This document shows, in pieces, positions 14,536 through 58,771 of a DNA stretch of 60,083 nucleotides. Position numbers and translations under genes: made by a program. The notes under the pieces were generated by a model. That model did not search any database and was not told the DNA's origin. It saw only the letters and a program-made list of their open reading frames with translations. The first letter of the stretch is position 1. Every line of letters begins with the position of its first letter. The DNA is from an uncultured Planctomycetales bacterium (GTDB lineage: Bacteria; Omnitrophota; Gorgyraeia; Zapsychrales; Zapsychraceae): NCBI GenBank assembly GCA_964535935.1, contig CAZHWM010000012.1:131232-191314 (forward strand), written 5' to 3'.

Positions 14536-15351
14536 TTAAGTGGTAGGTATACCATACCTTTGCAGAAGCCATGATATAATCTCATTTCCCCAAAACAAAC
14601 TAATTATCGCACCAAGAACTAGAAACGGACCATAAGCTATCACCGTCTCTTTAGTACGTATCTTTTCAACAATACCAAAAATTGAACCAAAGAACGGTGC
14701 TATAAAAAAAGTAAGAAGAGCATATTTCCAACCTAAAAAGGCTCCTATCATAGCGAGTAATTTTATGTCTCCCCCACCCATAGACTCTTTTTTAAATAAA
14801 AAATCTCCAAGTATACCCATTAAATAAATAACACCACCTCCTATCAATACACCCAATACAGACATACCTAGTGCTGTTAAATGAGAGGCCAAAAAATTAG
14901 TATTATTAGTATCTACACCCTGTAAGCCAGGTATAAAAAAACTAAAAAAAAGCCCAGCAAACATTCCACCTATACTTACTTCATCTGGTATTATTCTATG
15001 TTCAAAATCTACAAAAGTTGCAACGATAAAACAAGATAACATTACTAAATATGGTAAAAGAATAGTCTTCAGACCAAAATAAATGTAAAATAAAGTAAAT
15101 AATATAGCTGTGATTAGTTCCACCCCAAAATAACGAAAAGAGATTCTTTCTTTACAAAAACGACATCGACCTTTTAAAAGAATATAACTAAGAAGAGGTA
15201 TATTATCATACCATGGAATATTCTTTTTACACTTAAGACAATGAGATGGGGGTGTTACTACAGAGGCCTCTTGAGGCAATCGAACGATACATACATTTAA
15301 AAAACTCCCTACTATTGCGCCTAAAATAAATATACATATAGCTATTTCCAT
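14536..15351 (-). CDS. pilD: Prepilin peptidase (A24 family) with N-terminal Cys methyltransferase-type domain
   Basis: GSFLNVCIVRLP, SHCLKC, NIPLLSY..LKGRCRFC, VDFEHRIIPD, MGGGDIKL (two catalytic Asp), AYGPFL. Confidence 0.93.
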   Translation of the reverse strand: MEIAICIFILGAIVGSFLNVCIVRLPQEASVVTPPSHCLKCKKNIPWYDNIPLLSYILLKGRCRFCKERISFRYFGVELITAILFTLFYIYFGLKTILLPYLVMLSCFIVATFVDFEHRIIPDEVSIGGMFAGLFFSFFIPGLQGVDTNNTNFLASHLTALGMSVLGVLIGGGVIYLMGILGDFLFKKESMGGGDIKLLAMIGAFLGWKYALLTFFIAPFFGSIFGIVEKIRTKETVIAYGPFLVLGAIISLFWGNEIISWLLQRYGIPTT

Positions 15352-31195: not shown

Positions 31196-31855
31196 TTATT
31201 TTATCCCAAATACACATACAATATAGTCCTCATACACCTCTAATACCTCCATAACAAATTGTCTTTCACATAAACTTATAAGATTAATCTTAGTAGCTTT
31301 TATCTTAGGAAAGATCTCACTAACACTAATTTCGTTAATATTACACTTCGGATAACTAATCCCACAAATTTCTACTTTCGTCAAATAAGGATTTTTTTTC
31401 TTCATTTCCGGAGGTATTCTTAAGATGTGCGTATTCTTCCAATCTATGTATAACCCTGTCGGCAATGTATTGACATCTGTAGGGATTATATATTTATTAC
31501 TCATAATAACAATTCTATATCCACCGGGGTATTTATTCCAAAAACCTAATGGATATTCCTTTTTTATTCTTTCAACTACTTCCTTTATATGACTAGATTT
31601 ATTTGGACTATTTGCCTTACTTTCTAAGATATGGACCACATAAAAATATATAGACAAGCCTATCGCCAAGAAAAATAAAAAAACAATAATATCTTTATAA
31701 TTTGAAACTATCCGCCATAGATATTGGTTACGTTTATATTTCTTATTTATATTTCGTATACCCGATATCTTTTTTTTATATACAATATTTCTGCCTTTTT
31801 TTCGTCGTAATTTATTCCCTTTCTTACGATTATTTTTACTTTTCTGTTTTACCAT
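31196..31855 (-). CDS. Hypothetical single-pass membrane protein with a very basic N-terminal tail
   Basis: First ~45 aa are K/R-rich, followed by the hydrophobic segment IIVFLFFLAIGLSIYFYVV; overlaps the cheD end by 20 bp; no family recognised. Confidence 0.6.
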   Translation of the reverse strand: MVKQKSKNNRKKGNKLRRKKGRNIVYKKKISGIRNINKKYKRNQYLWRIVSNYKDIIVFLFFLAIGLSIYFYVVHILESKANSPNKSSHIKEVVERIKKEYPLGFWNKYPGGYRIVIMSNKYIIPTDVNTLPTGLYIDWKNTHILRIPPEMKKKNPYLTKVEICGISYPKCNINEISVSEIFPKIKATKINLISLCERQFVMEVLEVYEDYIVCVFGIK

Positions 31856-32372
31856 GCTGACTGTTATATGATTGCCATAAAAGCTTTTTGGGACTGTCCC
31901 CTACAGAAAAAAACACTTTTCCTGTAGGTATATCAAACATTATACTCCTTCGCAGCAGCCCGCCGACATCCTGTGCTACAATTTTCAAATTCTTTCGTTT
32001 TATATATTCAATGACCGAGTTAATATTACTTATTCCTATATTATCGGCCTCTCTTTGTAATACGTTAGCCCCACCTACCATAGATATTTCTATATCCTTG
32101 ATGTCTTTCATTCCACATTCATAAAATGTCTCTAACATAAAATCTAATGCATTATATGCATATTTTCTCTTATTACCTTTTACATGAACCGGTGCTATTC
32201 CAGGAAGCATAATATGCGCAAGAGCACCTATATGCTTTTTCATATTATATGCAGCTACAGCAATACATGAGCCTATAGCAGAAACTGTCAAAATTGTATT
32301 TAAGTATCCGAATTTTATTTCTCCTGTTGAAACTTCGACAATATTTCTTTCTCGATATATATCATCTTCCAT
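31836..32372 (-). CDS. cheD: Chemoreceptor glutamine deamidase CheD (orphan)
   Basis: TGE, AIGSCIAV (catalytic Cys), AHIMLP (catalytic His), KYA, VGGANV, NIG..N, QDVGG..RR. Confidence 0.92.
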   Translation of the reverse strand: MEDDIYRERNIVEVSTGEIKFGYLNTILTVSAIGSCIAVAAYNMKKHIGALAHIMLPGIAPVHVKGNKRKYAYNALDFMLETFYECGMKDIKDIEISMVGGANVLQREADNIGISNINSVIEYIKRKNLKIVAQDVGGLLRRSIMFDIPTGKVFFSVGDSPKKLLWQSYNSQHGKTEK

Positions 32373-35199
32373 ACTGAATAATCTTTTCTTTTAATTTCTC
32401 CACATCTATTGGTTTAGTTATAAAATCGTTCATCCCTACCTCTGCCGCTTTTCGTCTATCTTCCTGCATTACTGCAGCAGTAAGGGCAATAATAGGAAGC
32501 TCCTTACTTATCTCTGAACGAATTATTTTAGTAGCTTCTATACCATCCATAACCGGCATTTGAAGATCCATAAGACATAAATCATACTGATTACCTGCCT
32601 TAAGCTTTTCTACTGCCTCTTTCCCATTATTGGCAAACTCTGCGATACATCCTAATTCTTCAAAATAAGCCTGAAGTAACATACGATTAGGCATACTATC
32701 TTCTGCTACTAAAATCTTTATGCCCTTATAATTCAACTCATCTGCCATATGCCTGGTAACTATTGGCCCCATCTCTCTTTTGTCCCCCAATACAGTGGCT
32801 ATAACCTTCGCGAAATTATCTATAATAACAGGCTTAGGCAAATAACCATCAAAGCCCATCTCCTGTGCCTTATTAGCCTCTCCTATCTGAGGATCTGCTG
32901 TCACAGCAATTATTTTAAGCTTTTTATATTTGTCATAAGAACGTATTTTTTTAACCAACTCATATCCGTATTCTTTACCTAAAAAAATATCACATAAAAT
33001 TATATCAGGTATATTATTATCTTCTTCTAGTCTCTTTATACATTCGAATGCAGTTTTTGCTGAAGACTCTACTGATAATATCCGCATACCCAACTGTTTA
33101 CATAATTGTTTTAAGATTCTCTGAGATACCTTATTATCTTCTACTATCACAACAGCCTTACTCTTTATTTCTTTATAAGAAAGAGGATATATCTCTGTCT
33201 CTGAGATAGCTTTACCTTTTTCAAATGGAATCACAAAAATAAATTTACTTCCTTTATTCAGTTCAGATTCTACCCATATTTTCCCACCCATAGCCTCTAC
33301 AAGTGCCTTACATATAGTAAGCCCTAATCCCGTCCCACCATATTTCCTTGTAACAGATGTATCAGCCTGACTAAATGATTCAAATATATCATCAAGTTTA
33401 TCTGAAGGGATTCCTATACCAGTATCCACTACACTAAATCGCAATAAAGGTATATCTTCCGTTCTATCTTTTTCCTTGTTGACCACAACACCTATCTCTC
33501 CTTGTGTAGTAAACTTAATTGCATTTCCAAGTAAATTCACGAATATCTGTCGCAAACGGGTAGGATCTCCTTTAAGATAAATAGGCACATCTTTATCTAT
33601 CTCGATATATGTATCGATTCGTTTATCTCCCATTCGTGTTGCAACTATTTTAAAAACATCATTAATTAGATATCTTAAATTAAAATCTATCTTCTCTAAG
33701 GAGATTTTGCCTGATTCTAATTTTGACAAATCAAGGATGTCATTTATAATACTCAACAATAACTGCCCACTCGAGATGATAGTATCCAAATATTCTTTTT
33801 GTCTCTCATCTAAAGGAGTCTTTCGTAAAAGTTCACTAAACCCCAATACAGCATTCATGGGCGTACGTATTTCATGACTCATGTTAGCAAGAAAATCTGC
33901 TTTAGCCCGGGCCAAGTCTTCCGCCCGTTCCTTAGCGGCCCTCAACTGCTGTTCACTAGCTGTAAGCTGTTGATTTGCTGCCCTAAGCTGCTGTTCATTG
34001 GCCAATAATTGTTGATTTGCTGCCTTCAATTGTTGTTCATTCTCCAATAATTTTTTATTCAATGTCGATAATTCTTTACTCCTTTCTTGTTCCTCTTTTA
34101 TAAGTCTTTTTTGTTCATTCATGAGATTACGAACTTCTGTTATATCAGTGAAAATCTCTATTATACCGATTATATTACCATCTGCATCTTTAAAAGGACT
34201 TCCCATAATCTTAAAACATCCTTCTTTCCCAGAAGGCATCCTTTTCTTTACCTCTAAATCTATTCTCTCTTCCCCTGACATAATTTGCCTTAATGGACAC
34301 CTGTCCGTATGACAATAGCTTCCCTTAAAAACATCAAAACATTTTCTTCCCTTAACATCTTCCTGTGAAATCCCAGAAAGCTCTGACATTGCCATATTTT
34401 CACTTATAATGTTAAAATTTTTATCTATAACCATCATTCCACTAGGCGCACTGTTATATATCTGAATCAATTCTGTCCCCAATCTCTTTAAATCTTTTAT
34501 CATGTTATTAAATGCTTCTGCTAATATACCTATCTCATCTCCTGTGACAGATGGCATACTTACATCTAAATTACCTCTCCCTACTTCTTCCATCATTTTT
34601 ATTAGCCTAAAAATAGGCCGTGTAATAATTTTAACAAAGGCTATAGAGAATATCCCTCCTATAATTAATACAATTAATATTACTAATATAATAGAATGAA
34701 CTATCCTTGAAACCGCTATAATAAAAGGCCCCTCTGTTGTAGCAAAATCAACTATACCCAAATTATTACCTATAGGTATACATATATCATGTATCTTACC
34801 ATTAGAAGCCGTAAAATGAATGATCTTATAAGGAGATATTGTATCTTTACAACTCGAACTATTTAATTTAAGACGAACAGATTTCCCTACATATAATAGT
34901 TGTTTGCCTTCACAATCCCTTAATGATATATAAATTGCCTCCTTCATATGTTTTATATGCTTCAACAGGATCATCCTAAGTTCATCTATATTCCCATTTC
35001 CTTTTAAATATCGTTCACATAATTCTTTTATGTGATAAGCCTCTGTTAAAGCCCTTTTGTGGTATTCTGTATCAAAACTATTATATATAACCGTATAAGT
35101 AAATATAATTATTGCGCATCCCATAAATAATACAATTGATACTACCCCAATAAAGAATTTTAATTGCAAACTGCAACATTTACTTTTCTTACCTCTCAT
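32362..35199 (-). CDS. Hybrid sensor histidine kinase: TM-sensor-TM-HAMP-PAS-Gln-rich coiled coil-HisKA-HATPase-REC-REC
   Basis: HAMP (RPIFRL..GNLD..DEIG.LAEAFN.M), PAS (SAPSGMMVID..IEIFTDIT), H-box FLANMSHEIRTPMN, N/G boxes (NLLGNAIKFT, DTGIGI, YGGTGLGL), REC1 (CDIFL), REC2 (MDLQMPVMDG). Confidence 0.95.
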   Translation of the reverse strand: MRGKKSKCCSLQLKFFIGVVSIVLFMGCAIIIFTYTVIYNSFDTEYHKRALTEAYHIKELCERYLKGNGNIDELRMILLKHIKHMKEAIYISLRDCEGKQLLYVGKSVRLKLNSSSCKDTISPYKIIHFTASNGKIHDICIPIGNNLGIVDFATTEGPFIIAVSRIVHSIILVILIVLIIGGIFSIAFVKIITRPIFRLIKMMEEVGRGNLDVSMPSVTGDEIGILAEAFNNMIKDLKRLGTELIQIYNSAPSGMMVIDKNFNIISENMAMSELSGISQEDVKGRKCFDVFKGSYCHTDRCPLRQIMSGEERIDLEVKKRMPSGKEGCFKIMGSPFKDADGNIIGIIEIFTDITEVRNLMNEQKRLIKEEQERSKELSTLNKKLLENEQQLKAANQQLLANEQQLRAANQQLTASEQQLRAAKERAEDLARAKADFLANMSHEIRTPMNAVLGFSELLRKTPLDERQKEYLDTIISSGQLLLSIINDILDLSKLESGKISLEKIDFNLRYLINDVFKIVATRMGDKRIDTYIEIDKDVPIYLKGDPTRLRQIFVNLLGNAIKFTTQGEIGVVVNKEKDRTEDIPLLRFSVVDTGIGIPSDKLDDIFESFSQADTSVTRKYGGTGLGLTICKALVEAMGGKIWVESELNKGSKFIFVIPFEKGKAISETEIYPLSYKEIKSKAVVIVEDNKVSQRILKQLCKQLGMRILSVESSAKTAFECIKRLEEDNNIPDIILCDIFLGKEYGYELVKKIRSYDKYKKLKIIAVTADPQIGEANKAQEMGFDGYLPKPVIIDNFAKVIATVLGDKREMGPIVTRHMADELNYKGIKILVAEDSMPNRMLLQAYFEELGCIAEFANNGKEAVEKLKAGNQYDLCLMDLQMPVMDGIEATKIIRSEISKELPIIALTAAVMQEDRRKAAEVGMNDFITKPIDVEKLKEKIIQYGR
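33934..34041 (-). repeat. In-frame 42-bp (14-aa) tandem repeat, ~2.5 copies, encoding five heptad-spaced QQ pairs
   Basis: Protein NEQQLKAANQQLLA-NEQQLRAANQQLTA-SEQQLRAA; DNA units differ largely at synonymous positions (CAA/CAG, TTG/CTT/TTA, GCA/GCC/GCT). Confidence 0.9.
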
Positions 35200-35701
35200 C
35201 TTTTCCCCCTTTAGTTACAGTTGCCCCCCACATACCTAAATGCCTTTTCTTAGCATTACCTTCTAACATAAGAAACAATTCTTTATATTTATAGGGGAAG
35301 TGCCTTATAGCCTCGGCATATCCCAGGCGTATAAGTTCTTCATTAATAAAAGTTCCATCCTTAAGATATACATATGCTAGCCTACGACCATATTTATCAA
35401 ACTCTTTCTGATTATCATAGCCTTTAAGCCACACTCGTTTATGTTCTATTTTGCTTTTTAGATAATACTTCGCCTCTTTTGCGAAAAATTCTGTTTTGGA
35501 GTGATATTTAGACTTTATCTCTGGAGCATTAATACCTATTAATCGTATATGTTCATTGTTGGAAAGGATAAAAGTATCTCCATCAATTACATATTTTACA
35601 TACGCCCATTCTCCAAATGATATTAACGGAGAGAATAAAATAAATCCAGCACTTATTATTATCAAAAAAATTACCTTATTAGAAGGGATCTTTTTATACA
35701 T
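35189..35701 (-). CDS. Thermonuclease (staphylococcal nuclease) family protein, N-terminally anchored or secreted
   Basis: VIDGDT, IRLIGINAPE, DKYGRRLAYVY, INEELIRLGYA, GMWG; hydrophobic N-terminus. Confidence 0.92.
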   Translation of the reverse strand: MYKKIPSNKVIFLIIISAGFILFSPLISFGEWAYVKYVIDGDTFILSNNEHIRLIGINAPEIKSKYHSKTEFFAKEAKYYLKSKIEHKRVWLKGYDNQKEFDKYGRRLAYVYLKDGTFINEELIRLGYAEAIRHFPYKYKELFLMLEGNAKKRHLGMWGATVTKGGKDER

Positions 35702-40815: not shown

Positions 40816-43479
40816 TTATCCTAATTCTGCAAGAGCCTGTTTTAGTTCTTTGATCTTTAGCTCCATTTCATCAAATCTGATGCGTTCCTTTTGTATCACC
40901 TCCTGCGGAGCCTTATTTAAAAAATCTTTATTTTGTAATCTTGCAGACAGGCTGCTGACAATACGTTCATTATCCTTAATTTCAGCTATAATCCGTTGTT
41001 TCTCCTCTTCTATATTTATAAGACCGCTTAAAGCTACTATACATTTCACCTTCCCTATTACAACCGTTGCTGAAGCCGATACATTATTAGCATCAACTTC
41101 TCCGACAGTAATCTCATTGACCTTAGCAAATGTCCGAAGCATATTGGAATTTTGTTCTAATAATGACAGAGAAATAGTATCTTCAGATACAAATTGACAA
41201 TCTATTTTATCCTTAGGTTTTATATTCCATCTGGCCCTTATATTGCGTAATGCACCTATCACATCAATAACAAATTTCATATCAGCTTCTACTTTTACAT
41301 CAATCTTTTCCTCCTCTATATCAGGCCAACGCTGAATACATAAAGGATTATCCTTACCTTTAAATCTACACCATATCTCTTCTGTCACAAACGGCATAAA
41401 GGGGTGCAATATCTTTAATGAACCCTCAAGTAAGGCCAAAGCTATATTTTGTATATTTTCTTCATTCCATCTCTCTTTTATAATCTCCAGATACCAATCA
41501 CATAACTCACTCCAGAAAAAATCCTCTACAAGTATCTCTGCCTCAGAGAAACGGTATCTTTCTATTGCATTGCCTACATGTTTGACAGTGTTAAAAAATC
41601 TTGATACAATCCATTTAGTTACAAGATCTTTATCTTCTATTTTAATACCAGATAGATAATTAGCCCCTGATTCAGATCGTTTAAGGTTAGATAGGTCAAT
41701 ATGCATTAATATAAGCCTTGACGCATTCCATACCTTATTTGCAAAATTCCTCCCTATTTCAAATTTATCTTTCGAAATAAAGATATCCTGACCAGAATTA
41801 ACAATAAGACTAAATCTTAACGCATCTGCCCCGTATTCCTCTATTATTTCAAGAGGATCAATTGCATTTCCTAAAGATTTCGACATCTTCCTACCTTTAG
41901 AATCACGTACTGTACCATGAATATATACATCTGAAAAAGGGATATCTCCCATAAACTCCAAACCTGCCATTATCATGCGTGCAACCCAGAAAAAGATTAT
42001 CTCTGGTGCAGTAAATAATGCTGATGTAGGATAAAAATATTGCAAGTCAGGATCAATCGTACCATCAGATAACGGCCACCTGAACGTTGCGAACGGCCAT
42101 AACCATGATGAAAACCACGTATCAAGGACATCTTCATCTTGATATATATCCTTTGAACCACATTTAGGACATTGTTTGGGATCTGTTTCAGAAACAATAA
42201 CATTATCATCATTTCCACAATCTCTACAATACCATACTGGGATTCTGTGTCCCCACCATATCTGCCTTGATATACACCAATCACGAATATTCTCCATCCA
42301 ATTCATATAAACTTTGGTCCATCTCTGAGGATAAAACTTAATCTTTCCTTCTTTTACTGCTGTAATCGCAGGTTCCGCGAGAGGCTTCATCTTTACAAAC
42401 CATTGTTTAGAAAGATATGGTTCTACAATAGTATGACAACGATAACAGTGCCCTACTGCATGCATATGAGGCGTTATCTTTTCAAGTAGTTTTCTTTGCT
42501 TCAATTCATCAACAATTGCCTCTCTTGCCTCAAACCTATCCATATCAGCAAATTCACCTGCCTGTTCATTAAGTCTTGCATCCGGATGCATAATATTAAT
42601 AGCTTTTAACCCATGCCGTTCTCCCATAAAAAAATCATTAGGATCATGAGCAGGTGTAACCTTAACTGCACCTGTTCCAAATTCAGGGTCAACAAACTCA
42701 TCTGCAACAATGGGTATATACCTACCTATAAGAGGAAGTACAACGGTCTTTCCTATCAGATTGGTGTACCTACTGTCATTCGGGTTAACTGCAACAGCTG
42801 TATCCCCTAACATGGTCTCAGGCCTTGTTGTAGCAACTGTAATATATTCATCAGTATCTTTAATAGGATAACGAATATAATAAAGAAAACCTTCTGTATC
42901 CTTATGCTCAGCCTCCTCATCAGATAAAGCAGTAAGACAGCGCGGACACCAATTGATAATATATTCACCTCGATATATAAAACCTTTTTGATATAACTTT
43001 ACAAAAACATACCTTACAGCCCTACAATAATCTTCATCCATCGTAAACCTTAACCTCTGCCAGTCACAAGAACTACCTAATCTTTTAAGCTGTCGAATAA
43101 TGGTATCTCCATACTCTCTCTTCCATGCCCATAATCGTTCTAAAAAAGCATCGCGACCTATATCCTGCCTTCGTTTTCCTTCCTTTGCCAGTTGTTTTTC
43201 AACAACATTCTGAGTAGCTATACCTGCATGATCCGTACCAGGCATCCATAACGCCTCAAACCCCTTCATACGCTTATATCGGATAATAATATCCTGCAAT
43301 GTATTGTTGAGCGCATGCCCCATATGAAGAATACCTGTAACATTTGGAGGAGGGATAACAACAGTATAAGGCTGTTTATTTTGATTAACTTTGGCTGAGA
43401 AACAATTCTTCTCCTCCCAATATTTGGCCCATTTATTATCTACCTCTTTGAAATTAAATCTTGGTGGCAATTCTATCAT
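40816..43479 (-). CDS. valS: Valine--tRNA ligase
   Basis: PPPNVTGILHMGH (HIGH), PGTDHAGIATQ, ATTRPETMLGD, WCISRQIWWGH, KMSKSLGN, C-terminal coiled coil. Confidence 0.98.
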   Translation of the reverse strand: MIELPPRFNFKEVDNKWAKYWEEKNCFSAKVNQNKQPYTVVIPPPNVTGILHMGHALNNTLQDIIIRYKRMKGFEALWMPGTDHAGIATQNVVEKQLAKEGKRRQDIGRDAFLERLWAWKREYGDTIIRQLKRLGSSCDWQRLRFTMDEDYCRAVRYVFVKLYQKGFIYRGEYIINWCPRCLTALSDEEAEHKDTEGFLYYIRYPIKDTDEYITVATTRPETMLGDTAVAVNPNDSRYTNLIGKTVVLPLIGRYIPIVADEFVDPEFGTGAVKVTPAHDPNDFFMGERHGLKAINIMHPDARLNEQAGEFADMDRFEAREAIVDELKQRKLLEKITPHMHAVGHCYRCHTIVEPYLSKQWFVKMKPLAEPAITAVKEGKIKFYPQRWTKVYMNWMENIRDWCISRQIWWGHRIPVWYCRDCGNDDNVIVSETDPKQCPKCGSKDIYQDEDVLDTWFSSWLWPFATFRWPLSDGTIDPDLQYFYPTSALFTAPEIIFFWVARMIMAGLEFMGDIPFSDVYIHGTVRDSKGRKMSKSLGNAIDPLEIIEEYGADALRFSLIVNSGQDIFISKDKFEIGRNFANKVWNASRLILMHIDLSNLKRSESGANYLSGIKIEDKDLVTKWIVSRFFNTVKHVGNAIERYRFSEAEILVEDFFWSELCDWYLEIIKERWNEENIQNIALALLEGSLKILHPFMPFVTEEIWCRFKGKDNPLCIQRWPDIEEEKIDVKVEADMKFVIDVIGALRNIRARWNIKPKDKIDCQFVSEDTISLSLLEQNSNMLRTFAKVNEITVGEVDANNVSASATVVIGKVKCIVALSGLINIEEEKQRIIAEIKDNERIVSSLSARLQNKDFLNKAPQEVIQKERIRFDEMELKIKELKQALAELG

Positions 43480-43865
43480 TCTACTACCTTCACCCTTTCT
43501 AATAATTTTTCTATTAAAAGACTATAATCTCTTATCTTTTCATAAATAGCATCTGCTATCTCTTCCTTATATGTATGGGAGGTATTATTTCTACTATCTG
43601 TCATCTCAAGAAATTTGATAGTTTCATCCTCTCCAAAAATACCAGCAGCAAAAGCCTCTCTAAAAACTGCCTTAGGAGTATTAACAATAATACCTTCATT
43701 GTCTTTTAAATACTCTTTTAAAAACTTCCATAGCGCCTCAAATGTATATTCAAACCGTTGTATTGCCGCATCCCTTACAATAACAGAAAAAGGTTCTCTT
43801 AATACCTGCTTTAAAGTAGTAGATGCCCGCAATGCATCTTTGTATCTCAAGGACAATCTTTCCAT
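43476..43865 (-). CDS. HEPN-domain protein (HI0074/HepT-like toxin)
   Basis: RDAAIQRFEYTFEALWK and RNNTSHTY (R-x4-H RNase motif plus Tyr). Confidence 0.9.
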   Translation of the reverse strand: MERLSLRYKDALRASTTLKQVLREPFSVIVRDAAIQRFEYTFEALWKFLKEYLKDNEGIIVNTPKAVFREAFAAGIFGEDETIKFLEMTDSRNNTSHTYKEEIADAIYEKIRDYSLLIEKLLERVKVVE

Positions 43866-50169: not shown

Positions 50170-51482
50170 TGTAATTTCTCCATTCTTATAGCAACCGGTT
50201 TATCTCTAACAACAGAAAGCCTGTTTATCTGACTAAGCGCCATACGGATATTTCTCTCCGAGGTATAATCTGTAAGCATAACAACAGGAACAGTGGAAAG
50301 ACGATTGTGTGCCCTCTGAGTAACAGAGTTAATACTTATACCATGTCTACCAAGTATACCAGAAATTTTCGACAATACTCCTGGTTTGTCTGTCACCATG
50401 AACCTTATATAAAATTTTGTTTGTATCTGATCTATTTTCCTGATCTTCAAACCTTTACCTTCACTATAAATATTTCGCAATGCTGAGGTATTAACATGAC
50501 CAGATGCAAGATTTATAAGATCACTTATCACACCAGATGCGGCTGCCATTTGTCCTGCACCTTCCCCGGAAATAAGAATATCTCCTAAAGGTGAAGTTTG
50601 AAAAAATACTGCATTATATATACCATTTATTGAGGCAAGTGGATGCCCCTTAGCAATAAGTGTAGGATGAACCCGTGCCTCTATCTCATCCGATGTCTTA
50701 GTATTAGGAGACGATACTTTTTTAGATATTGCTAATAATTTTATAACCAATCCAAGGCTTTCTGCATATTCTATGTCCTCGCCTGATATATGAGTAATAC
50801 CTTCGGTGTATATATCCTTTACCCTGATAAATTTACCAAACCCAAGACTTATCATAATAGCTAGCTTATGTGCTGTGTCCATACCATTAATATCCAAAGT
50901 AGGATCGCTTTCCGCATAACCTTTTTTTTGAGCAGCCTTCACAGCATCTTCAAAAGAACATCTGTTTTTTGTCATCTCACTTAAAATAAAATTACACGTG
51001 CCATTCACTATCCCGTATATCCCATCGAAACTATTACCGGCAATGCCTTCTGTTATGGTTTTGATAATAGGGACCCCTGCACATACAGACGATTCAAAAA
51101 ATATGCTCTTACGATATTTATCTGCTAACCTAAACAAAATATTACCAAAATTAGAAATAAGCGCCTTATTAGCAGTAACAAAATATTTCCCAGCCCTAAT
51201 AGCCTTTTCTGCTATCTCCTTTGCCGGATGAAGCCCTCCTATAAGTTCAACAACAGTATCTATATTATCCGCACCAACAATATCCTCATAACTAGTGGTC
51301 AGCATTATATCTTTGTTTAATGAATTAATATTCTTTTTATGTATATCCAAATCACATATTGCTTTAATAGAAAGATTTACACCGAACTTTTTCTTAATAT
51401 AATTCCCCTTTTTTTTAATAAAAATAGCCACCCCGCTGCCTACCGTCCCATAACCTATTAAACCTATATTAACGTTTCTCAT
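50166..51482 (-). CDS. hom: Homoserine dehydrogenase with C-terminal ACT domain
   Basis: [55 protein letters not shown]. Confidence 0.95.
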
Positions 51483-51862
51483 AACTCATCTCTCCTATTA
51501 GCAAAGAAGTCCATAATTTTCTTTAATAAAAATTTAGCCTCTGGTGTAAGATCTTTAAACTGTAGACGTGTGTTATATAAAATACCCTTAGCTGTTTCAT
51601 GTGATTCTAACACCACCCCTTCTAAATAAGTAGCATCACTCAGATATGGGGTATTCAAATCGATACCCATCACCGTTCCCGGTGCATACGCCCTTGTAGT
51701 GATAAAACACATACCACCTAAGCTGATATTCTTTAATTGGGTCACTTCGTATTTCTTTTCTGGATTATCTCTGAGATAATAAGAAAGCAAAAAATGCTTT
51801 TTAATCCGTTTATTCTTTCTTCTTTCAACCTTTGAATATTGATCCTTCATTAAAACCTCCAA
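51479..51862 (-). CDS. Stand-alone PilZ domain protein
   Basis: ERRKNKR (RxxxR) and NISLGG ([DN]xSxxG); ATGA overlap with hom. Confidence 0.85.
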   Translation of the reverse strand: MEVLMKDQYSKVERRKNKRIKKHFLLSYYLRDNPEKKYEVTQLKNISLGGMCFITTRAYAPGTVMGIDLNTPYLSDATYLEGVVLESHETAKGILYNTRLQFKDLTPEAKFLLKKIMDFFANRRDEL

Positions 51863-53177: not shown

Positions 53178-55049
53178 CTATGGTTTCATTACCTTAAAAA
53201 GGGCAAAATCTGAATTTGTGTATATCCTTTTAAATAAATGATTGTTATCAGCAGGGACAATATATCTTAAAAATACTACATAATTGGCATTATATTTTAG
53301 TATAGCATTTTTAATTGCACCTATTATTGGCCTATGTGGTCTAATTGTATAAGCAGATATATCATCAATCCTCTTTTTCCATTCCAAAGCTGCATCATAA
53401 TCAAAACCTACAATACCACAATCTCGCTCAGAAGCAACTATCTTCCTCTCAGAAAAAATACGAAATCCTCCCATAGGTAAATCATATGGGACTAATATTA
53501 CGGCATCTTTGGGTGTATTTTCTTTTACAAACCGTTGCATATCTACCCAACTCCTCATAACACGCCAAAAACCATCACCATGTTTCTCTCTGTAGTGTCG
53601 CTCAATGTTATAATGAACAAATTGTATTACAGAGATAATTAACGGAACAATATAAAATAATTTTTTTATCCTCCCTCTCCTTTTAGTATTAACATAATTT
53701 GCAGCTATGTATACTATAACTATACCTAAAGTTAATATTATTAAACAAACATAAGTGCTGGGTTGATATAGTTGTTGTTTAAATAGCAAATAGATCCCAA
53801 ATACACAATATAAAACAAAAAAAGTTGAAATAGTCATTATCAAGACACCCAACCACTTTATTCTAACTTTTCTGGCATTAAAAGCTATCAAGGTAAAAAA
53901 TAATAAAGCTAAAGCCGTAAGCTTTATATATTCACTGTATTTCAACATTGAAAATATTGCTGACATAGCCAAACCAACTGCAATAGAGCTTTCTTCTATT
54001 TTCTTTATAAACAAAATAGTAGTAAATCCCATAAGAAGAAAATGTAAATATTGAGTATTCCGTATAAGGTTCAAATCAACCACAAACTTAATAGGATAAA
54101 TATATGTAAATACAAAACAGATAACTAAAAGAGAAAAGGCCCCTATACAAAAAGCTAATGCCTTCTTATTATGTCTAAAAAAACTGTTGAAAATTATATT
54201 TATTATAAAAAGAAAAATTAAGACTAAATACTTTTTAGTAGCGGCAAAAAATAATTTAAAAGAACTAACTATAATTTTAAGACTAACTGGTGGGAACATA
54301 AAATTTTGAGGACAGGCAAGCAAATAAAGAGCTTTCCAATCCGTATGAGAAATACCTGCTGAAATATTCTTTGCCGCCATATGGTTTCCAATAACCCAAA
54401 AAATAAACGGTGAGGCAAAGATTAAATAAAACAATGATGCCTTAATGAACGTGAGAAAGCCATGTCGTTTAAATTGCCATAAAAGATATATCTCCATATA
54501 AATAAATGGGAATAAACTATACAATGCATGAAAATCTGTAGCAACTCCTAGCAATATGGCAGCAGTAAAAAATCTATCAATAAAAAAGAAATATATACCC
54601 GCAAAAATAATAGCAAGGGCAAATTCTTGATGAGAAAATGTTCTATAAAGAAATTCATATACCCTACTAAATGCAATAAAAACTATTACACACGAAAAAG
54701 CATGTAACTTATCTTTTGTTATTGAGAGCCATAATTTGTATATCCAAAAAAATAAAAAATACCTACTAATAAGATAAAGGATAAAATATACTAGAGGAAT
54801 CTGGTTAATACTAATAATATGAGCCAATATTGGATAAAGATATGATGGGAAATTTCTTTTAAGACTATCTACATAATAATCCCCCACATAAAGACTACTA
54901 TCTATTAAACTTTTCAATAAAGGAATCTCAACATGTTGATCATCCCAACCATACTTGTAACTAGTAGTAGACAAAAAAACACCCAATAACACTAAAGAAA
55001 TAAACCAAGTAGAATATAGATATTTAAATAAAACTCGGAAAGAATTCAT
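53178..55049 (-). CDS. Polytopic membrane protein, putative GT-C-fold glycosyltransferase
   Basis: About 12 hydrophobic segments, acidic first loop YGWDDQHVEIP, C-terminal soluble domain (VKENTPKDAVILVP, FRIFSER); the family call is inference. Confidence 0.55.
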   Translation of the reverse strand: MNSFRVLFKYLYSTWFISLVLLGVFLSTTSYKYGWDDQHVEIPLLKSLIDSSLYVGDYYVDSLKRNFPSYLYPILAHIISINQIPLVYFILYLISRYFLFFWIYKLWLSITKDKLHAFSCVIVFIAFSRVYEFLYRTFSHQEFALAIIFAGIYFFFIDRFFTAAILLGVATDFHALYSLFPFIYMEIYLLWQFKRHGFLTFIKASLFYLIFASPFIFWVIGNHMAAKNISAGISHTDWKALYLLACPQNFMFPPVSLKIIVSSFKLFFAATKKYLVLIFLFIINIIFNSFFRHNKKALAFCIGAFSLLVICFVFTYIYPIKFVVDLNLIRNTQYLHFLLMGFTTILFIKKIEESSIAVGLAMSAIFSMLKYSEYIKLTALALLFFTLIAFNARKVRIKWLGVLIMTISTFFVLYCVFGIYLLFKQQLYQPSTYVCLIILTLGIVIVYIAANYVNTKRRGRIKKLFYIVPLIISVIQFVHYNIERHYREKHGDGFWRVMRSWVDMQRFVKENTPKDAVILVPYDLPMGGFRIFSERKIVASERDCGIVGFDYDAALEWKKRIDDISAYTIRPHRPIIGAIKNAILKYNANYVVFLRYIVPADNNHLFKRIYTNSDFALFKVMKP

Positions 55050-55097
55050 GGTGAGAATAATATATATATTATAATTATATAATAACTAAACTAAAAA

Positions 55098-55168
55098 AGC
55101 GGGCGATGAGGATCGAACTCACGTTTCAAGCTTGGAAGGCTTGTGTTCTACCACTGAACTACGCCCGC
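55098..55168 (-). tRNA. tRNA-Gly(TCC)
   Basis: GCGGGCG stem, CAAGC-CTTCCAA-GCTTG anticodon arm, GTGAG-TTCGATC-CTCAT; CCA not encoded. Confidence 0.96.
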
Positions 55169-55201
55169 CTATATTCCTCACTTTTCAGAGGGATATATAA
55201 A

Positions 55202-55284
55202 TGGGCAGGGAAGGATTCGAACCTCCGAAGCGCAAGCGCAGCAGATTTACAGTCTGCCCTCGTTGACCACTTGAGTACCTGCCC
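55202..55284 (-). tRNA. tRNA-Tyr(GTA)
   Basis: GGGCAGG stem, GCAGA-CTGTAAA-TCTGC anticodon arm, long variable arm, GGTTCGAATCC; CCA not encoded. Confidence 0.96.
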
Positions 55285-55315
55285 AAAAATCTACCATCAG
55301 ATTTCTCTAGATAAA

Positions 55316-55388
55316 AGCCGGCGAGAGGCCTCGAACCCCCGACCCGCTGATTACAAATCAGCTGCTCTACCAACTGAGCTACGCCGGC
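55316..55388 (-). tRNA. tRNA-Thr(TGT)
   Basis: GCCGGCG stem, GCTGA-TTTGTAA-TCAGC anticodon arm, GGGGG-TTCGAGG-CCTCT; CCA not encoded. Confidence 0.95.
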
Positions 55389-55442
55389 TTAAATACCCAA
55401 CAAACCATGGAAATTTAGCTCCTTCTCGAATAATGAAGCATA

Positions 55443-55471
55443 AGTATACCAAAATTTTACGCAGATGTAAA
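55443..55471 (-). promoter_or_regulatory. Putative sigma70 promoter of the Thr-Tyr-Gly tRNA operon
   Basis: Minus strand TTTACA-17 nt-TATACT with an extended -10 TG, about 55 bp upstream of tRNA-Thr. Confidence 0.65.
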
Positions 55472-55488
55472 GGATGAATATAGCGTTT

Positions 55489-55848
55489 TTAAGATAAAAT
55501 AGAAGATATATATTTCAATAATTTATCCTGCTCATCCTGAGAAAGACCAAAAAATTCTATACCCACACAGTGATACCCCAAATATTCTGACATACTTTGC
55601 CATACGACTCTACCCCTTACTTCAAAAGCCTGAGGATTTCCAGAAAAATATAAATTCATATACAAAATAGTATCAATATCTATTTTACGTTGAGCATAAA
55701 TACATACCCCATAAGCACTAAGATCCTTAATAAAAACAGTTTGTCTATGGACTGATTCCTCACTCAAAGAATAATCAGCAACCACACCCTTTACACGTTT
55801 TCCCCTGCGAGTTTTACTAATTCCTTGATGATAATTTTTCCCCTCCAT
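55489..55848 (-). CDS. Stand-alone PilZ domain protein
   Basis: RRGKR (RxxxR), DLSAYG (DxSxxG), VRGRVVW..GIEF. Confidence 0.82.
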   Translation of the reverse strand: MEGKNYHQGISKTRRGKRVKGVVADYSLSEESVHRQTVFIKDLSAYGVCIYAQRKIDIDTILYMNLYFSGNPQAFEVRGRVVWQSMSEYLGYHCVGIEFFGLSQDEQDKLLKYISSILS

Positions 55849-55992
55849 CTATCTTTCTCCTAATATAAATTTTATTCTTTAAAAATTAAAAAATATTATA
55901 TTATTTTTATTTTTTTTATATATAATATTTTAGCATATTTCCTTTTAAATTAAAGAGCTATTAAAATTATATCAACTTTAAGGAGAAACAAA

Positions 55993-57204
55993 ATGAAAAA
56001 AATAGGAATAATTACAAGTGGAGGCGATTGTGGTGGACTTAATGCTGTACTTAAAGGAACCGCATTAATGGCAAGGAGATATGGGACATCTTGTTTTGTA
56101 ATTCCCAATGGATATGCGGGCCTGTATAATTTAGTAGAATTTGATAAACTTGTTGAATTAACTCCTGAAAGGATAGATTCCGTAAATGCAAATGCTGCAG
56201 GCTCTGAGGCAGGACATTCTCGTGTAAAAATAGCAAAGATTGCAGATCCCGATAAGTACAAAAGAATAAAAGCCGGTCTTAAAAAATTTAAATTAGAAGG
56301 ACTGGTCATTAGCGGTGGGGATGATACAGGAAAGGTAATGATAGACCTAGCAGAACAAGGGATTAAATGTGTACATGCACCCAAAACGATGGATTTAGAC
56401 TTACAAACGTATTCTGTAGGTTTTGATTCTACAGTCAATCGCATAGCACGCTTTGTAGATGATATAAAAACCACTGGCCGGACACATAACAGAATTATAG
56501 TAATGGAGGTATTCGGAAGATATGCCGGACATACCGCATTTCGAGCTGGTATAGCAGCTGATGCCGATGCCATATTGATACCAGAAGTGCCTGTTGATTT
56601 TGATATTTTATATAAAGATTGTAAAGAAACCTTTATGTCTAGGGTTGCATCGAGTGATGTTAAAGCGGGGACCTATCTAATTTTAGTAGCTGAAGGGCTT
56701 AAAAAAGCTGACGGCGGTGAACTTTATGACAAATCAGCTGGAACAGATGCATTTGGGCATAAAAGATTGGCAGGAGCCGGTAAATATGTTTGCGATGAAC
56801 TTACTAAAAGATTAAAAACTGATCCGGAGATAAAACAGTTTATGAAAGAGCAAAAAATGTTTGTTAAAGATCTCTACGAAATACCAGAGGTAAGAACCGT
56901 ATCTCCCGGTCATTTAGTCCGATGTGGAGACTCCTCTGTATATGACGTTAATTTTGGCAAGGAAGTAGGTGCCGGGGCAGTTATATTATTGCATGAAGGC
57001 AAAAGCGGTGTAACTATAGTAGGAGTCAGCCGTGGAAAAATAGAATATATAGATGCTCACAAGGCAATAAAACAAAGATATGTGGATCCACGTATTATAG
57101 CATTTCATGAACAAATGGGTGTATGCTTTGGACGTAATATCACATGGGAGCCACCTATATGTGAAGAAAGGAAAGGCCATATTCGTAGATATTTGAATAC
57201 TTAA
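55993..57204 (+). CDS. pfkA: 6-phosphofructokinase, predicted PPi-dependent
   Basis: TSGGDCGGLNAV, SGGDDT (GGDD, with Asp at the donor-specificity position), PKTMD, EVFGRYAGH, IPE, GHLVR. Confidence 0.9.
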   Translation: MKKIGIITSGGDCGGLNAVLKGTALMARRYGTSCFVIPNGYAGLYNLVEFDKLVELTPERIDSVNANAAGSEAGHSRVKIAKIADPDKYKRIKAGLKKFKLEGLVISGGDDTGKVMIDLAEQGIKCVHAPKTMDLDLQTYSVGFDSTVNRIARFVDDIKTTGRTHNRIIVMEVFGRYAGHTAFRAGIAADADAILIPEVPVDFDILYKDCKETFMSRVASSDVKAGTYLILVAEGLKKADGGELYDKSAGTDAFGHKRLAGAGKYVCDELTKRLKTDPEIKQFMKEQKMFVKDLYEIPEVRTVSPGHLVRCGDSSVYDVNFGKEVGAGAVILLHEGKSGVTIVGVSRGKIEYIDAHKAIKQRYVDPRIIAFHEQMGVCFGRNITWEPPICEERKGHIRRYLNT

Positions 57205-57337
57205 AAATAATATTCCAATAATATTAAATATCATTCCTGCCTAGCGTAATATTTCTATCTCAGTTTTTTGTTTTGTTTAGAATAACACGGCAGGCAGAAA
57301 GTAACAATTTTTATTAATTCTTAATTATTTCCCATCC

Positions 57338-58771
57338 ATGAAAAGACAAATCATAAAAAAATTTTTAATATTTTTAACACTCACCTTTCTTAGTATATCT
57401 GCCTTTATTATACGGTTAAATAATTTTAAAAAGCATCAAATGCGCACAATAGATGAAATAGTTTATTATACAATGGGCTCCCAGATGGCCAAAAACATCC
57501 TTGACTACAATACAATTCCCTATGGCAAAAAACTCATGGCCAGCGGAAGGAAATTACCTAAATATTTCTCTGAACCACTTTTTAAACATCCGCCTGTATT
57601 CTCACTGCTTATCAGCTTCTCTATAAGAATATTTGGAGATAAACTTTTATCTGCAGAATATATATCATTAACTGCCGGGATATTAATGATACCTCTCATA
57701 TATTTATTAGCCACTTTGATTTTTGACTGGAAAATAGGATTAATATCTGCTTTGTTTTTATGGTTAGATCCAATTACCATCATGTGCTCCCAAAAGGTAT
57801 GGATGGGAACAACAATAGCCTTTTTTGTCCTACTATCTGCAGTACTGTTTATTTCCGCTTTAAAATATAATAAAAATTGGCTATTTATATTAAGTGGAAT
57901 TTCTGCAGGCTTGGCAGTTAACACTAAGTATACAGGTATTCTTATTACTATAGCAATAACAATATTTGCTATAATCTACAAAAAAAATTTATTTAAAAAT
58001 AAATATTTTATTATATCTCTAGGCCTTCCAATTATTATGCTTATGCCTTGGTTTTATTGGAATTATAAAGTATATGGGATAAAGTCAGTATTAAGACATC
58101 CTGAATTATTGGCATTAGTAAAAGATATAAAACGGCTTTCAAAAATCATTCCAATTTTTCTTCTTGCTGGTATAGGAACTATATTATATAAAAAAATCAA
58201 AAAGAATAACAAATCAAATATCTGGTATTATTTTACTAATAATAAGAATATAAAAAATAATAATATATTATCTAGTCTTTCCTACATCCTTATTTTAACT
58301 ATAATATGCATATTTCTTAAAAATGCTTTATTACATAGCTTACAACCGAGACATATTCCATTTACCTCATGGATGTTTGGGGTCTTCTTAAACGAAACCC
58401 CTTCTTTTTATTTTAGACGGCTCATAGAGTACTCTTTTATATATACCTTATCATTTATTTATCTATTCTCTTACACTCCTAATAGGAAACCCGAAGCCTC
58501 TCTTATAAGTATTTCTGCTGGAATTATTCTAACCTTCTTTATTATGTGGGGCAACTATCAATCAAGATATATATTATCTGCTATCCCTTTCCTAATCATA
58601 CTTGGAGTAAAGTTATGGTTCCAATTATTTAATAAAGTGTCAAAAAGTAGTAATACTCTTATATATTTTTTAGGTAGACTGGGACTAAGAGTACTGTTAA
58701 TATATATTTTATTAAAAACATACTTACTTGACGTACTACTTAGTTTCACAAATAATATGTGTTATTTTTGA
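57338..58771 (+). CDS. ArnT/PMT-like GT-C glycosyltransferase (family 39/83-like)
   Basis: IDEIVY in the first loop, FKHPP, GLAVNTKYTG, MPWFYWN, SRYIL; polytopic. Confidence 0.82.
   Translation: MKRQIIKKFLIFLTLTFLSISAFIIRLNNFKKHQMRTIDEIVYYTMGSQMAKNILDYNTIPYGKKLMASGRKLPKYFSEPLFKHPPVFSLLISFSIRIFGDKLLSAEYISLTAGILMIPLIYLLATLIFDWKIGLISALFLWLDPITIMCSQKVWMGTTIAFFVLLSAVLFISALKYNKNWLFILSGISAGLAVNTKYTGILITIAITIFAIIYKKNLFKNKYFIISLGLPIIMLMPWFYWNYKVYGIKSVLRHPELLALVKDIKRLSKIIPIFLLAGIGTILYKKIKKNNKSNIWYYFTNNKNIKNNNILSSLSYILILTIICIFLKNALLHSLQPRHIPFTSWMFGVFLNETPSFYFRRLIEYSFIYTLSFIYLFSYTPNRKPEASLISISAGIILTFFIMWGNYQSRYILSAIPFLIILGVKLWFQLFNKVSKSSNTLIYFLGRLGLRVLLIYILLKTYLLDVLLSFTNNMCYF

Follow-up and report, generated by a model that had tools for sequence, protein, structure and literature searches.

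A CheD-family deamidase encoded beside histidine kinases with glutamine-pair heptad arrays: a widespread gene pair and a putative deamidation module

Introduction

What does a CheD protein do in a locus that encodes no chemoreceptor? The question is raised by a 60,083-nucleotide stretch of DNA from an uncultured bacterium, deposited under Planctomycetales and placed by GTDB in the family Zapsychraceae of the Omnitrophota (assembly GCA_964535935.1, contig CAZHWM010000012.1, positions 131,232 to 191,314; this whole stretch is hereafter called the window). On its minus strand a gene for a predicted CheD-family glutamine deamidase of 178 aa (31836..32372; Pfam PF03975) directly follows the gene of a hybrid sensor histidine kinase of 945 aa (32362..35199), which carries an array of glutamine pairs (QQ) in consecutive heptads. 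An earlier inspection of the letters without database searches (the sequence-only reading) had proposed that this kinase is the substrate of CheD. Here we report that the CheD-QQ pair is not peculiar to this kinase but forms a widespread module, counting several hundred protein clusters across many phyla, and we argue that the QQ array is probably the target of the enzyme.

Results

CheD and the QQ array are linked in both directions

The association was scanned for from either side. A species-level genome scan (one genome per species) using the alignment of the CheD subfamily alone returned 80 loci from Bacteroidota, Planctomycetota, Cloacimonadota, Omnitrophota, Zixibacteria, Ignavibacteria, Chlorobi (Prosthecochloris) and others. 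A QQ-heptad protein is present in 64 of them, 59 having at least three in-register QQ pairs and 5 having two pairs together with near-variants. One further locus (Tangfeifania DSM 27063) shows a decayed array, and 4-5 loci end right after cheD. Counted over the window and all CheD-derived loci, 58 of 69 repeat open reading frames (ORFs) lie at most 200 bp from cheD; they share its strand in nearly every case and are mostly located downstream of it. Besides one artefact, no other ORF in the CheD-derived loci or the window has a QQ array. This artefact, an in-register match at L014:12102-12347, was rejected as a false positive consisting of a 14-residue tandem repeat, LLQQIANLHVWRGY, and is the sole such case in ~1.1 Mb of CheD-derived loci. 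Three contexts of more distant CheDs share the pattern, with the array located N-terminally, after a membrane segment, or before the dimerisation and histidine phosphotransfer (DHp) domain.

In the opposite direction, a metagenome scan with the consensus repeat peptide alone yielded 79 loci, in 54 of which a member of the CheD subfamily is encoded beside the repeat gene. Among the 25 loci without CheD, 8 have the repeat ORF cut at the contig start, where cheD is usually positioned. CheD accounts for roughly one gene in a few thousand at the most, and the rate of chance neighbours would be well under 1%. Checked both ways, the enrichment of cheD next to QQ-heptad kinases, on which the sequence-only reading had staked its proposal, is very large.

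A search of 1.84 billion representative proteins with the repeat profile led to 815 clusters (50% identity) at E ≤ 0.001, 366 at ≤ 1e-10 and 39 at ≤ 1e-30. True in-register QQ arrays were found in 148 of the 149 top matches, and none of these 149 proteins contains a CheD, CheR, CheB catalytic or methyl-accepting chemotaxis protein (MCP) hairpin domain. No curated family covers the proteins of these clusters.

Two loci show the linkage in a particular form. On a metagenome contig (L136:2524-7404) a single stop-free reading frame comprises CheD together with two QQ arrays and a large number of PAS domains. In close relatives, ...NFLNEK is followed by a stop codon, and the contig shows either a natural CheD::QQ-repeat gene fusion or the loss of this stop. 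Moreover, two CheD-QQ kinase pairs are located on one complete 4.1-Mb chromosome (L018 and L055; Bacteroidales metagenome-assembled genome OY787449.1); an identity of only 43% between their CheDs suggests long-standing dedicated pairs. The two-way enrichment, the CheD::QQ protein and the invariant Cys and His of CheD (see below) support the kinase as a putative CheD substrate, as had been proposed.

The QQ array is part of a predicted signalling helix of the kinase

Judged by its domain content, with a HisKA domain including the H-box, HATPase_c and receivers in one chain, the 945-aa protein is a hybrid histidine kinase. ORF list, Pfam matches and hydropathy give the order transmembrane segment 1 (TM1), extracytoplasmic region, TM2, HAMP, PAS, QQ-heptad helix, HisKA, HATPase_c and two receiver (REC) domains. 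Hydrophobic segments are found at residues ~14-36 and ~162-190. Immediately C-terminal to TM2 follows HAMP (residues 189-238, 34486..34635 on the minus strand, as all coordinates of this gene; PF00672, 48.4 bits), then PAS (residues 246-357, 34129..34464; Pfam PAS_4/PAS_9/PAS) with a DIT motif at residue 352 near its end. HisKA, the DHp domain, covers residues 432-497 (33709..33906; PF00512, 87.4 bits) and HATPase_c residues 544-660 (33220..33570; PF02518, 107.8 bits). REC1 (residues ~684-800) and REC2 (829-940) are encoded at 32380..33150 and were matched in two stretches by PF00072 (157 bits).

The array itself, ENEQQLKAANQQLLANEQQLRAANQQLTASEQQLRAAKE, comprises residues 386-424 (33928..34044) and is the proposed CheD target. 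Residue mapping places its QQ pairs at 389/390, 396/397, 403/404, 410/411 and 417/418, spaced exactly 7 residues apart, and the phospho-accepting His442 (33874-33876; H-box SHEIRTP) 24 residues past the last QQ, so the five pairs between PAS and H-box are present just as first described. Not one of 20,000 shuffles of the kinase had three or more in-register QQ pairs. The underlying DNA is likewise periodic, with 2.9 copies of a 42-bp (14-aa) unit.

An AlphaFold2 (AF2) single-sequence model of a kinase fragment predicts one continuous helix at residues 353-458 (33826..34143), which starts at the PAS end with its DIT motif, takes in the array as well as His442 and ends together with DHp helix 1. 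The helix corresponds to fragment residues 114-219, with a predicted local distance difference test score (pLDDT) of 86-96 over residues ~360-429. The model was used for the helix alone, its PAS portion being unreliable (pLDDT ~30).

The genes of kinase and CheD overlap at 32362..32372 (minus strand), where the cheD ATG and the kinase TGA share the 11 bp ATGGAAGATGA, preceded in the DNA by CAGT. The overlap reported from the letters is therefore read directly in the junction, and it suggests translational coupling of kinase and cheD. L001, a 77%-identical relative, has the same 11-bp overlap.

Consensus of the repeat and its carrier proteins

The consensus derived from 1227 heptads in 168 arrays is A(91%)-[A/S/N/T]-[N 56%/E 39%]-Q(96%)-Q(97%)-L(97%)-[R/K/Q], the QQ frequencies being somewhat inflated because arrays were defined by QQ pairs. 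Its short form reads A-[AS]-[NE]-Q-Q-L-[RK]; relative to QQ, the alanine stands at -3 and the leucine at +2. The alternation of N and E leads to a 14-residue super-repeat (NE 388, EN 369, NN 116, EE 4). Arrays are 3-29 heptads long with a median of 7. Glu is seldom encoded at the QQ positions: it is present in 21 of the 1227 pairs and at less than 2% of positions.

The pattern A/S-xx-QQ-xx-A/S, reportedly the site preference published along with the structure of Thermotoga maritima CheD, fits 91% of the sites in the family and 4 of the 5 sites in the window kinase. We further applied the full 10-residue chemoreceptor pattern, which in the Escherichia coli receptor Tar recovers exactly four methylation sites (which we take to be Q295, E302, Q309 and E491). 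It fits 9% of the family sites. In the window kinase TASEQQLRAA alone conforms to it, and it does so fully, in line with the sequence-only reading.

Where an array is preceded by HAMP, a gap-free alignment with Tar extends from TM2 across HAMP into the array and brings Q295 and E302 of Tar onto the second Q of successive pairs; five further cases of this kind occur among the representative proteins. Matches to Tar end at HAMP and the first adaptation helix and never extend past residue ~330.

Domains of the repeat proteins were evaluated on an alignment of a 42-sequence subset of 61. PAS is found in 34 of the 42, HATPase_c in 32, a receiver in 16 and HAMP in 5, and the DHp domains are of the HisKA, HisKA_2, HisKA_3 or HWE type. 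The 25 commonest Pfam families in these 42 proteins, ranked above 18 rarer ones, do not include MCPsignal. Arrays are located before PAS, between PAS domains or, as in the window kinase, directly before DHp; across the family the repeat precedes PAS more often than DHp. In 28 of the 101 informative loci, the kinase is followed by a gene for a small response regulator.

One protein of 356 aa (L153:2840-3907) consists of a membrane segment, HAMP and QQ array without any output domain, and cheD comes directly after its gene. Its HAMP and array match HAMP and the first methylation helix of E. coli Tar with an E-value of 7.5e-13.

The subfamily represents divergent CheD with an invariant Cys-His pair

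The window CheD scores 67.7 bits against PF03975 (cut-off 25), and a subfamily profile built from 50 relatives matches T. maritima CheD (2f9z_C) with an E-value of 1.5e-28. The AF2 model of the protein (pLDDT 91.7) has 2f9z_C as its best Foldseek match, with a target-normalised TM-score of 0.84 and a root-mean-square deviation of 2.3 Å over 150 columns, followed by the deamidases NTAN1 and CNF. In NCBIfam it stays below the cut-offs of all nine CheD equivalog models, the best being NF041119 with 93.7 bits vs 240. These data point to a genuine, divergent CheD that is probably active.

Both motifs ascribed to it beforehand, SC and HxMLP, are retained: Cys36 lies in GSC (32265-32267) and His53 in AHIMLPG (32214-32216; both minus strand). 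Their spacing of 17 residues is the same as in T. maritima CheD, whose catalytic residues are presumably C27 and H44 with Thr21 as third residue. In 137 subfamily sequences, combined from two independent samplings, S35, C36, H53, G100 and L105 are invariant (137/137), and N103 is conserved to 96%. The subfamily has the signature GGANVL where T. maritima and an Oscillospiraceae CheD show GGA(S/Q)MF. In Bacillus subtilis CheD, M101 and F102 within this type of loop affect deamidase activity as well as partner binding (PMC3513319).

Chemotaxis genes in the window and in related loci

The sequence-only reading had listed no other chemotaxis gene in the 60 kb, and our searches agree. When E. coli CheA, CheW, CheR, CheB, CheY, CheZ, Tar and Tap were compared with the six-frame ORFs of the window by phmmer, only the kinase's own REC was matched, and phmmer and Pfam together revealed no MCP, CheA or CheW gene. 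Pfam coverage of the window comprised ORFs of at least 100 aa and the precomputed Pfam annotation of the syntenic relative L001; a few small ORFs at the 3' end were covered by phmmer only. CheC was not seen in the window by Pfam of the ORFs or of L001, the other loci not having been searched for it.

Neither CheR nor the CheB catalytic domain was matched by the E. coli seeds (phmmer) in the window, in 1.72 Mb from 163 related loci or in 149 representative QQ proteins. The flanks gave 65 CheB matches, all of which are receiver-only. Two loci that served as positive controls, L165 and L166, clearly show the CheB and CheR domains. Among the 163 loci, CheA is found only in L056 and CheW only in L135.

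Neighbouring genes and other features of the window

Kinase and cheD belong to a series of four minus-strand ORFs with overlapping ends, namely a staphylococcal-nuclease (SNase)-family gene, the kinase, cheD and an ORF of 219 aa. The SNase-family gene (35189-35701) codes for a secreted-type protein whose N-terminus contains a hydrophobic segment. The gene shares 11 bp with the start of the kinase gene and may be co-transcribed with kinase and cheD. In L001, 77 bp lie between the SNase-family gene and the kinase. The 219-aa ORF (31196..31855, minus strand) overlaps the cheD stop by 20 bp and shows a very basic N-terminus and a single hydrophobic segment. It has no Pfam match, and among the 163 loci homologues occur in L001 and L002 only. 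It is possibly the last gene of the operon and stands outside the conserved module.

By Pfam the remaining ORFs of the window are housekeeping genes. They include lipid A and lipopolysaccharide (LPS) genes, XerD, TopA, DprA, genes for aromatic and branched-chain amino acids, phosphotransferase system (PTS) components, ribosomal genes, PilD and two PilZ proteins. Two of the LPS genes encode fusions, one of a GT4 glycosyltransferase with a GT9 heptosyltransferase (3263-5353, 696 aa) and one of a lipid A acyltransferase with an ELM1-like domain (5435-7399, 654 aa). The small PilZ-domain proteins (51479-51862 and 55489-55848) and the prepilin peptidase PilD (14536-15351) point to cyclic di-GMP signalling and a type IV pilus or pseudopilus machinery; flagellar genes are not found in the window. 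A gene sharing 4 bp with the end of valS codes for a nucleotidyltransferase-substrate-binding/HepT-like protein of 129 aa (43476-43865), which may act as the toxin in an MNT-HepT pair. The homologues of ValS at 61-67% identity that carry a name all come from Omnitrophota, which places the organism in this phylum. As far as ~55.8 kb almost every gene is encoded on the minus strand, past this point on the plus strand, and the GC skew flips sign around 55000-58000, from -0.15 to +0.10. No dnaA was seen in the window. This switch could be a replication origin or terminus.

Discussion

A putative enzyme-substrate module

We consider it probable that CheD and the kinase form a dedicated enzyme-substrate module in which CheD binds and deamidates the QQ array and thereby changes the kinase output. 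The pairing of the genes in both directions, the conservation of the catalytic residues and the fit to the site pattern argue for such a module, and the modelled CheD fold as well as the predicted location of the array within a continuous helix are consistent with it. A Cys-His glutamine deamidase would be co-expressed with a kinase whose signalling helix bears tandem sites A-x-x-Q-Q-x-x-A, one per heptad. CheD would dock on the array and convert Gln to Glu, placing up to 10 negative charges per chain on the helix that relays the PAS/HAMP signal to His442, or 20 charges if the kinase is homodimeric as assumed for histidine kinases. An altered stability or register of the helix would then shift the set-point between kinase and phosphatase activity. 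Because no methyltransferase accompanies the module, the modification would be one-way and reset only through protein turnover. The strict retention of Gln further suggests that the amide state matters and is not a mere precursor of a methyl-accepting Glu. Kinase activity could be shifted either way; Glu could pair i/i+3 or i/i+4 with the frequent Arg/Lys at +3, or repel across the dimer.

A more far-reaching version is put forward tentatively, and we regard it as possible but doubtful. The array might act as a non-resettable charge counter, in which an initially fully amidated kinase is deamidated stepwise along its 3-29 heptads, possibly gated by the sensor state, and the output is set by age or signalling history. 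If true, numerous phyla that are non-motile and for the most part uncultured would possess a molecular timer or memory of this kind, and part of the 'orphan' CheD genes in metagenome-assembled genomes would be explained.

Several findings weigh against an enzyme-substrate module. About 10 of the 80 CheD-subfamily loci have no QQ protein nearby and were counted as true negatives, and about 15 informative repeat loci lack CheD within the fetched DNA. In the Chitinivibrionales locus L056 a subfamily member without a QQ protein nearby is encoded ~3.5 kb upstream of a genuine CheA (L056:505-7468), hence the subfamily is not used solely with QQ kinases. The position aligned to T. maritima Thr21 is Val30 in the window CheD, with Thr29 and Ser31 on either side, while the subfamily consensus is Ser. 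Each kinase has its own CheD, and the two CheD paralogues of the Bacteroidales chromosome are 43% identical, which resembles a stoichiometric partner more than a shared enzyme. Finally, the binding function of CheD outweighs its deamidase activity in B. subtilis (PMC3513319).

Alternative explanations

The last two points lead to a serious rival explanation, which we judge unlikely on balance. CheD would mainly be a stoichiometric partner, as proposed for the chemoreceptors of B. subtilis: by docking on the multivalent QQ array it would exert allosteric control on the kinase, either activating or inhibiting it, with deamidation incidental or serving only the destruction of docking sites. The B. 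subtilis variant CheD-F102E, which deamidates normally and yet behaves null-like, shows binding to be the key function there (PMC3513319). In the CheD-QQ pairs, the single, probably translationally coupled cheD per kinase gene speaks for a partner role, as do the two divergent paralogues of one genome, each beside its own kinase. Gln kept at 96-97% with hardly any encoded Glu would also fit a binding determinant. An invariant Cys36 and His53 in all 137 sequences are hard to explain without catalysis, however, and CheC, the titrator of CheD in B. subtilis, is not seen in the window, to which the search for it was confined.

It is considerably less probable that CheD primes the array, by conversion of Gln to Glu, for reversible methylation by CheR and CheB encoded elsewhere, in a split adaptation system like that of MAC2 kinases (MAC, methyl-accepting coiled coil). 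The idea, which the sequence-only reading had offered as one outcome, draws on the array being the Gln counterpart of the EE coil found in MAC1 kinases fused to CheB and CheR, and on the one site of the window kinase that meets the chemoreceptor pattern; in chemoreceptors, deamidation does yield methyl-accepting Glu (PMC7289035). A Glu that represents the working state should be commonly encoded, as it is in MAC1 and Tar, instead of occupying so few positions. No CheR or CheB catalytic domain was matched in the flanks or in the QQ proteins, and the chemoreceptor pattern fits only 9% of the in-register sites, which argues against priming for a CheR elsewhere.

Least probable is a coincidental adjacency, in which an orphan CheD acts on chemoreceptors of other loci, the QQ repeat being just a common coiled-coil linker. 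The subfamily member close to CheA in L056 would suit it, but it is contradicted by the two-way neighbourhood test, the linkage being reciprocal across many phyla, and a putative CheD::QQ-repeat fusion protein exists. The subfamily also occurs in Bacteroidota and Chlorobi (Prosthecochloris), to our knowledge lineages without flagellar chemotaxis. A transglutaminase-like, cross-linking role of CheD was considered too and set aside, with nothing found to support it.

Significance

In the literature searched we found no published description of a CheD-kinase or QQ-repeat system. Provided that the enzyme-substrate module operates as proposed, covalent receptor modification, so far a hallmark of chemotaxis arrays, would extend to ordinary two-component kinases by means of deamidation alone. 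According to MiST 4.0, CheD is relatively more frequent in metagenome-assembled than in cultured genomes (PMC10767990), an over-representation that the CheD-QQ module may help to explain. The uncharacterised MAC kinases would be linked to a Gln-encoded sister system. In addition, an enzyme of 20 kDa and a repeat peptide would make a very simple system for studying how the charge of a signalling helix sets kinase output.

Comparison with known systems

In its Pfam family, fold and Cys-His pair the window protein resembles canonical CheD of B. subtilis and T. maritima (PDB 2F9Z), and the target motif is again a Gln pair with small flanking residues on one face of a helix. Unlike canonical CheD, it is encoded in a locus that shows no MCP, CheC, CheA or CheW; it has the GGANVL loop signature, faces tandem target sites (3-29 per array) and scores below the equivalog cut-offs.

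With the first methylation helix of E. coli Tar the array has in common one site per heptad and, in HAMP-containing QQ proteins, the position directly after HAMP. In contrast to chemoreceptors, an MCP signalling domain is missing and a HisKA, HisKA_2, HisKA_3 or HWE kinase output is part of the same polypeptide. As in ordinary histidine-kinase signalling helices, the PAS DIT motif and the phospho-accepting His are connected by one continuous helix, here a predicted one. We know of no repeated enzyme-recognition sites and no dedicated modifying enzyme for ordinary PAS/HAMP-DHp linkers.

The MAC kinases, already named as a precedent before our analysis, come closest. MAC1 and MAC2 (Wuichet & Zhulin 2010) have been described as kinases whose coil resembles that of chemoreceptors and which have CheB and CheR either fused to them or associated; they are reported to be experimentally uncharacterised (bioRxiv 10.1101/2022.05.07.491037, PMC6943060). 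The CheD classes named in the accessible part of a MiST-based study are F1, F7, F8 and Uncat, with no MAC class among those listed (bioRxiv 10.1101/2022.05.07.491037). Our two control loci are plasmid-borne MAC1-type proteins of Sinorhizobium meliloti (pSymB, L165:3401-6886) and Methylobacterium radiotolerans (L166:3389-6880) with the architecture CheB_methylest-CheR_N-CheR-coil-PAS_10-PAS-HWE_HK. Each has seven in-register EE-type pairs from residue 658 on, just before PAS (for example ATEELRAANEELQSMNEEYRSTAEELETSKEELQSINEEL), and the CheB-CheR-fused kinases thus carry the same heptad coil with EE. Common descent of QQ array and MAC1 coil is plausible, the homology being suggested by layout only, as the QQ profile scores the MAC1 coil insignificantly (4.7 bits).

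Like MAC1, the CheD-QQ kinases are sensor kinases with a heptad coil of their own, made of paired acidic or amide residues, and without an MCP signalling hairpin. The coil layout small-small-N-XX-L-x is shared (EELRAANEEL in MAC1, QQLRAANQQL here), often just before PAS, and a chemotaxis-type modification enzyme is attached in both. MAC kinases have EE sites and both CheB and CheR, fused or adjacent, whereas the sites described here are QQ (96-97%) and CheD is the sole enzyme. What is new is thus a CheD-only, Gln-encoded counterpart of the MAC kinases.

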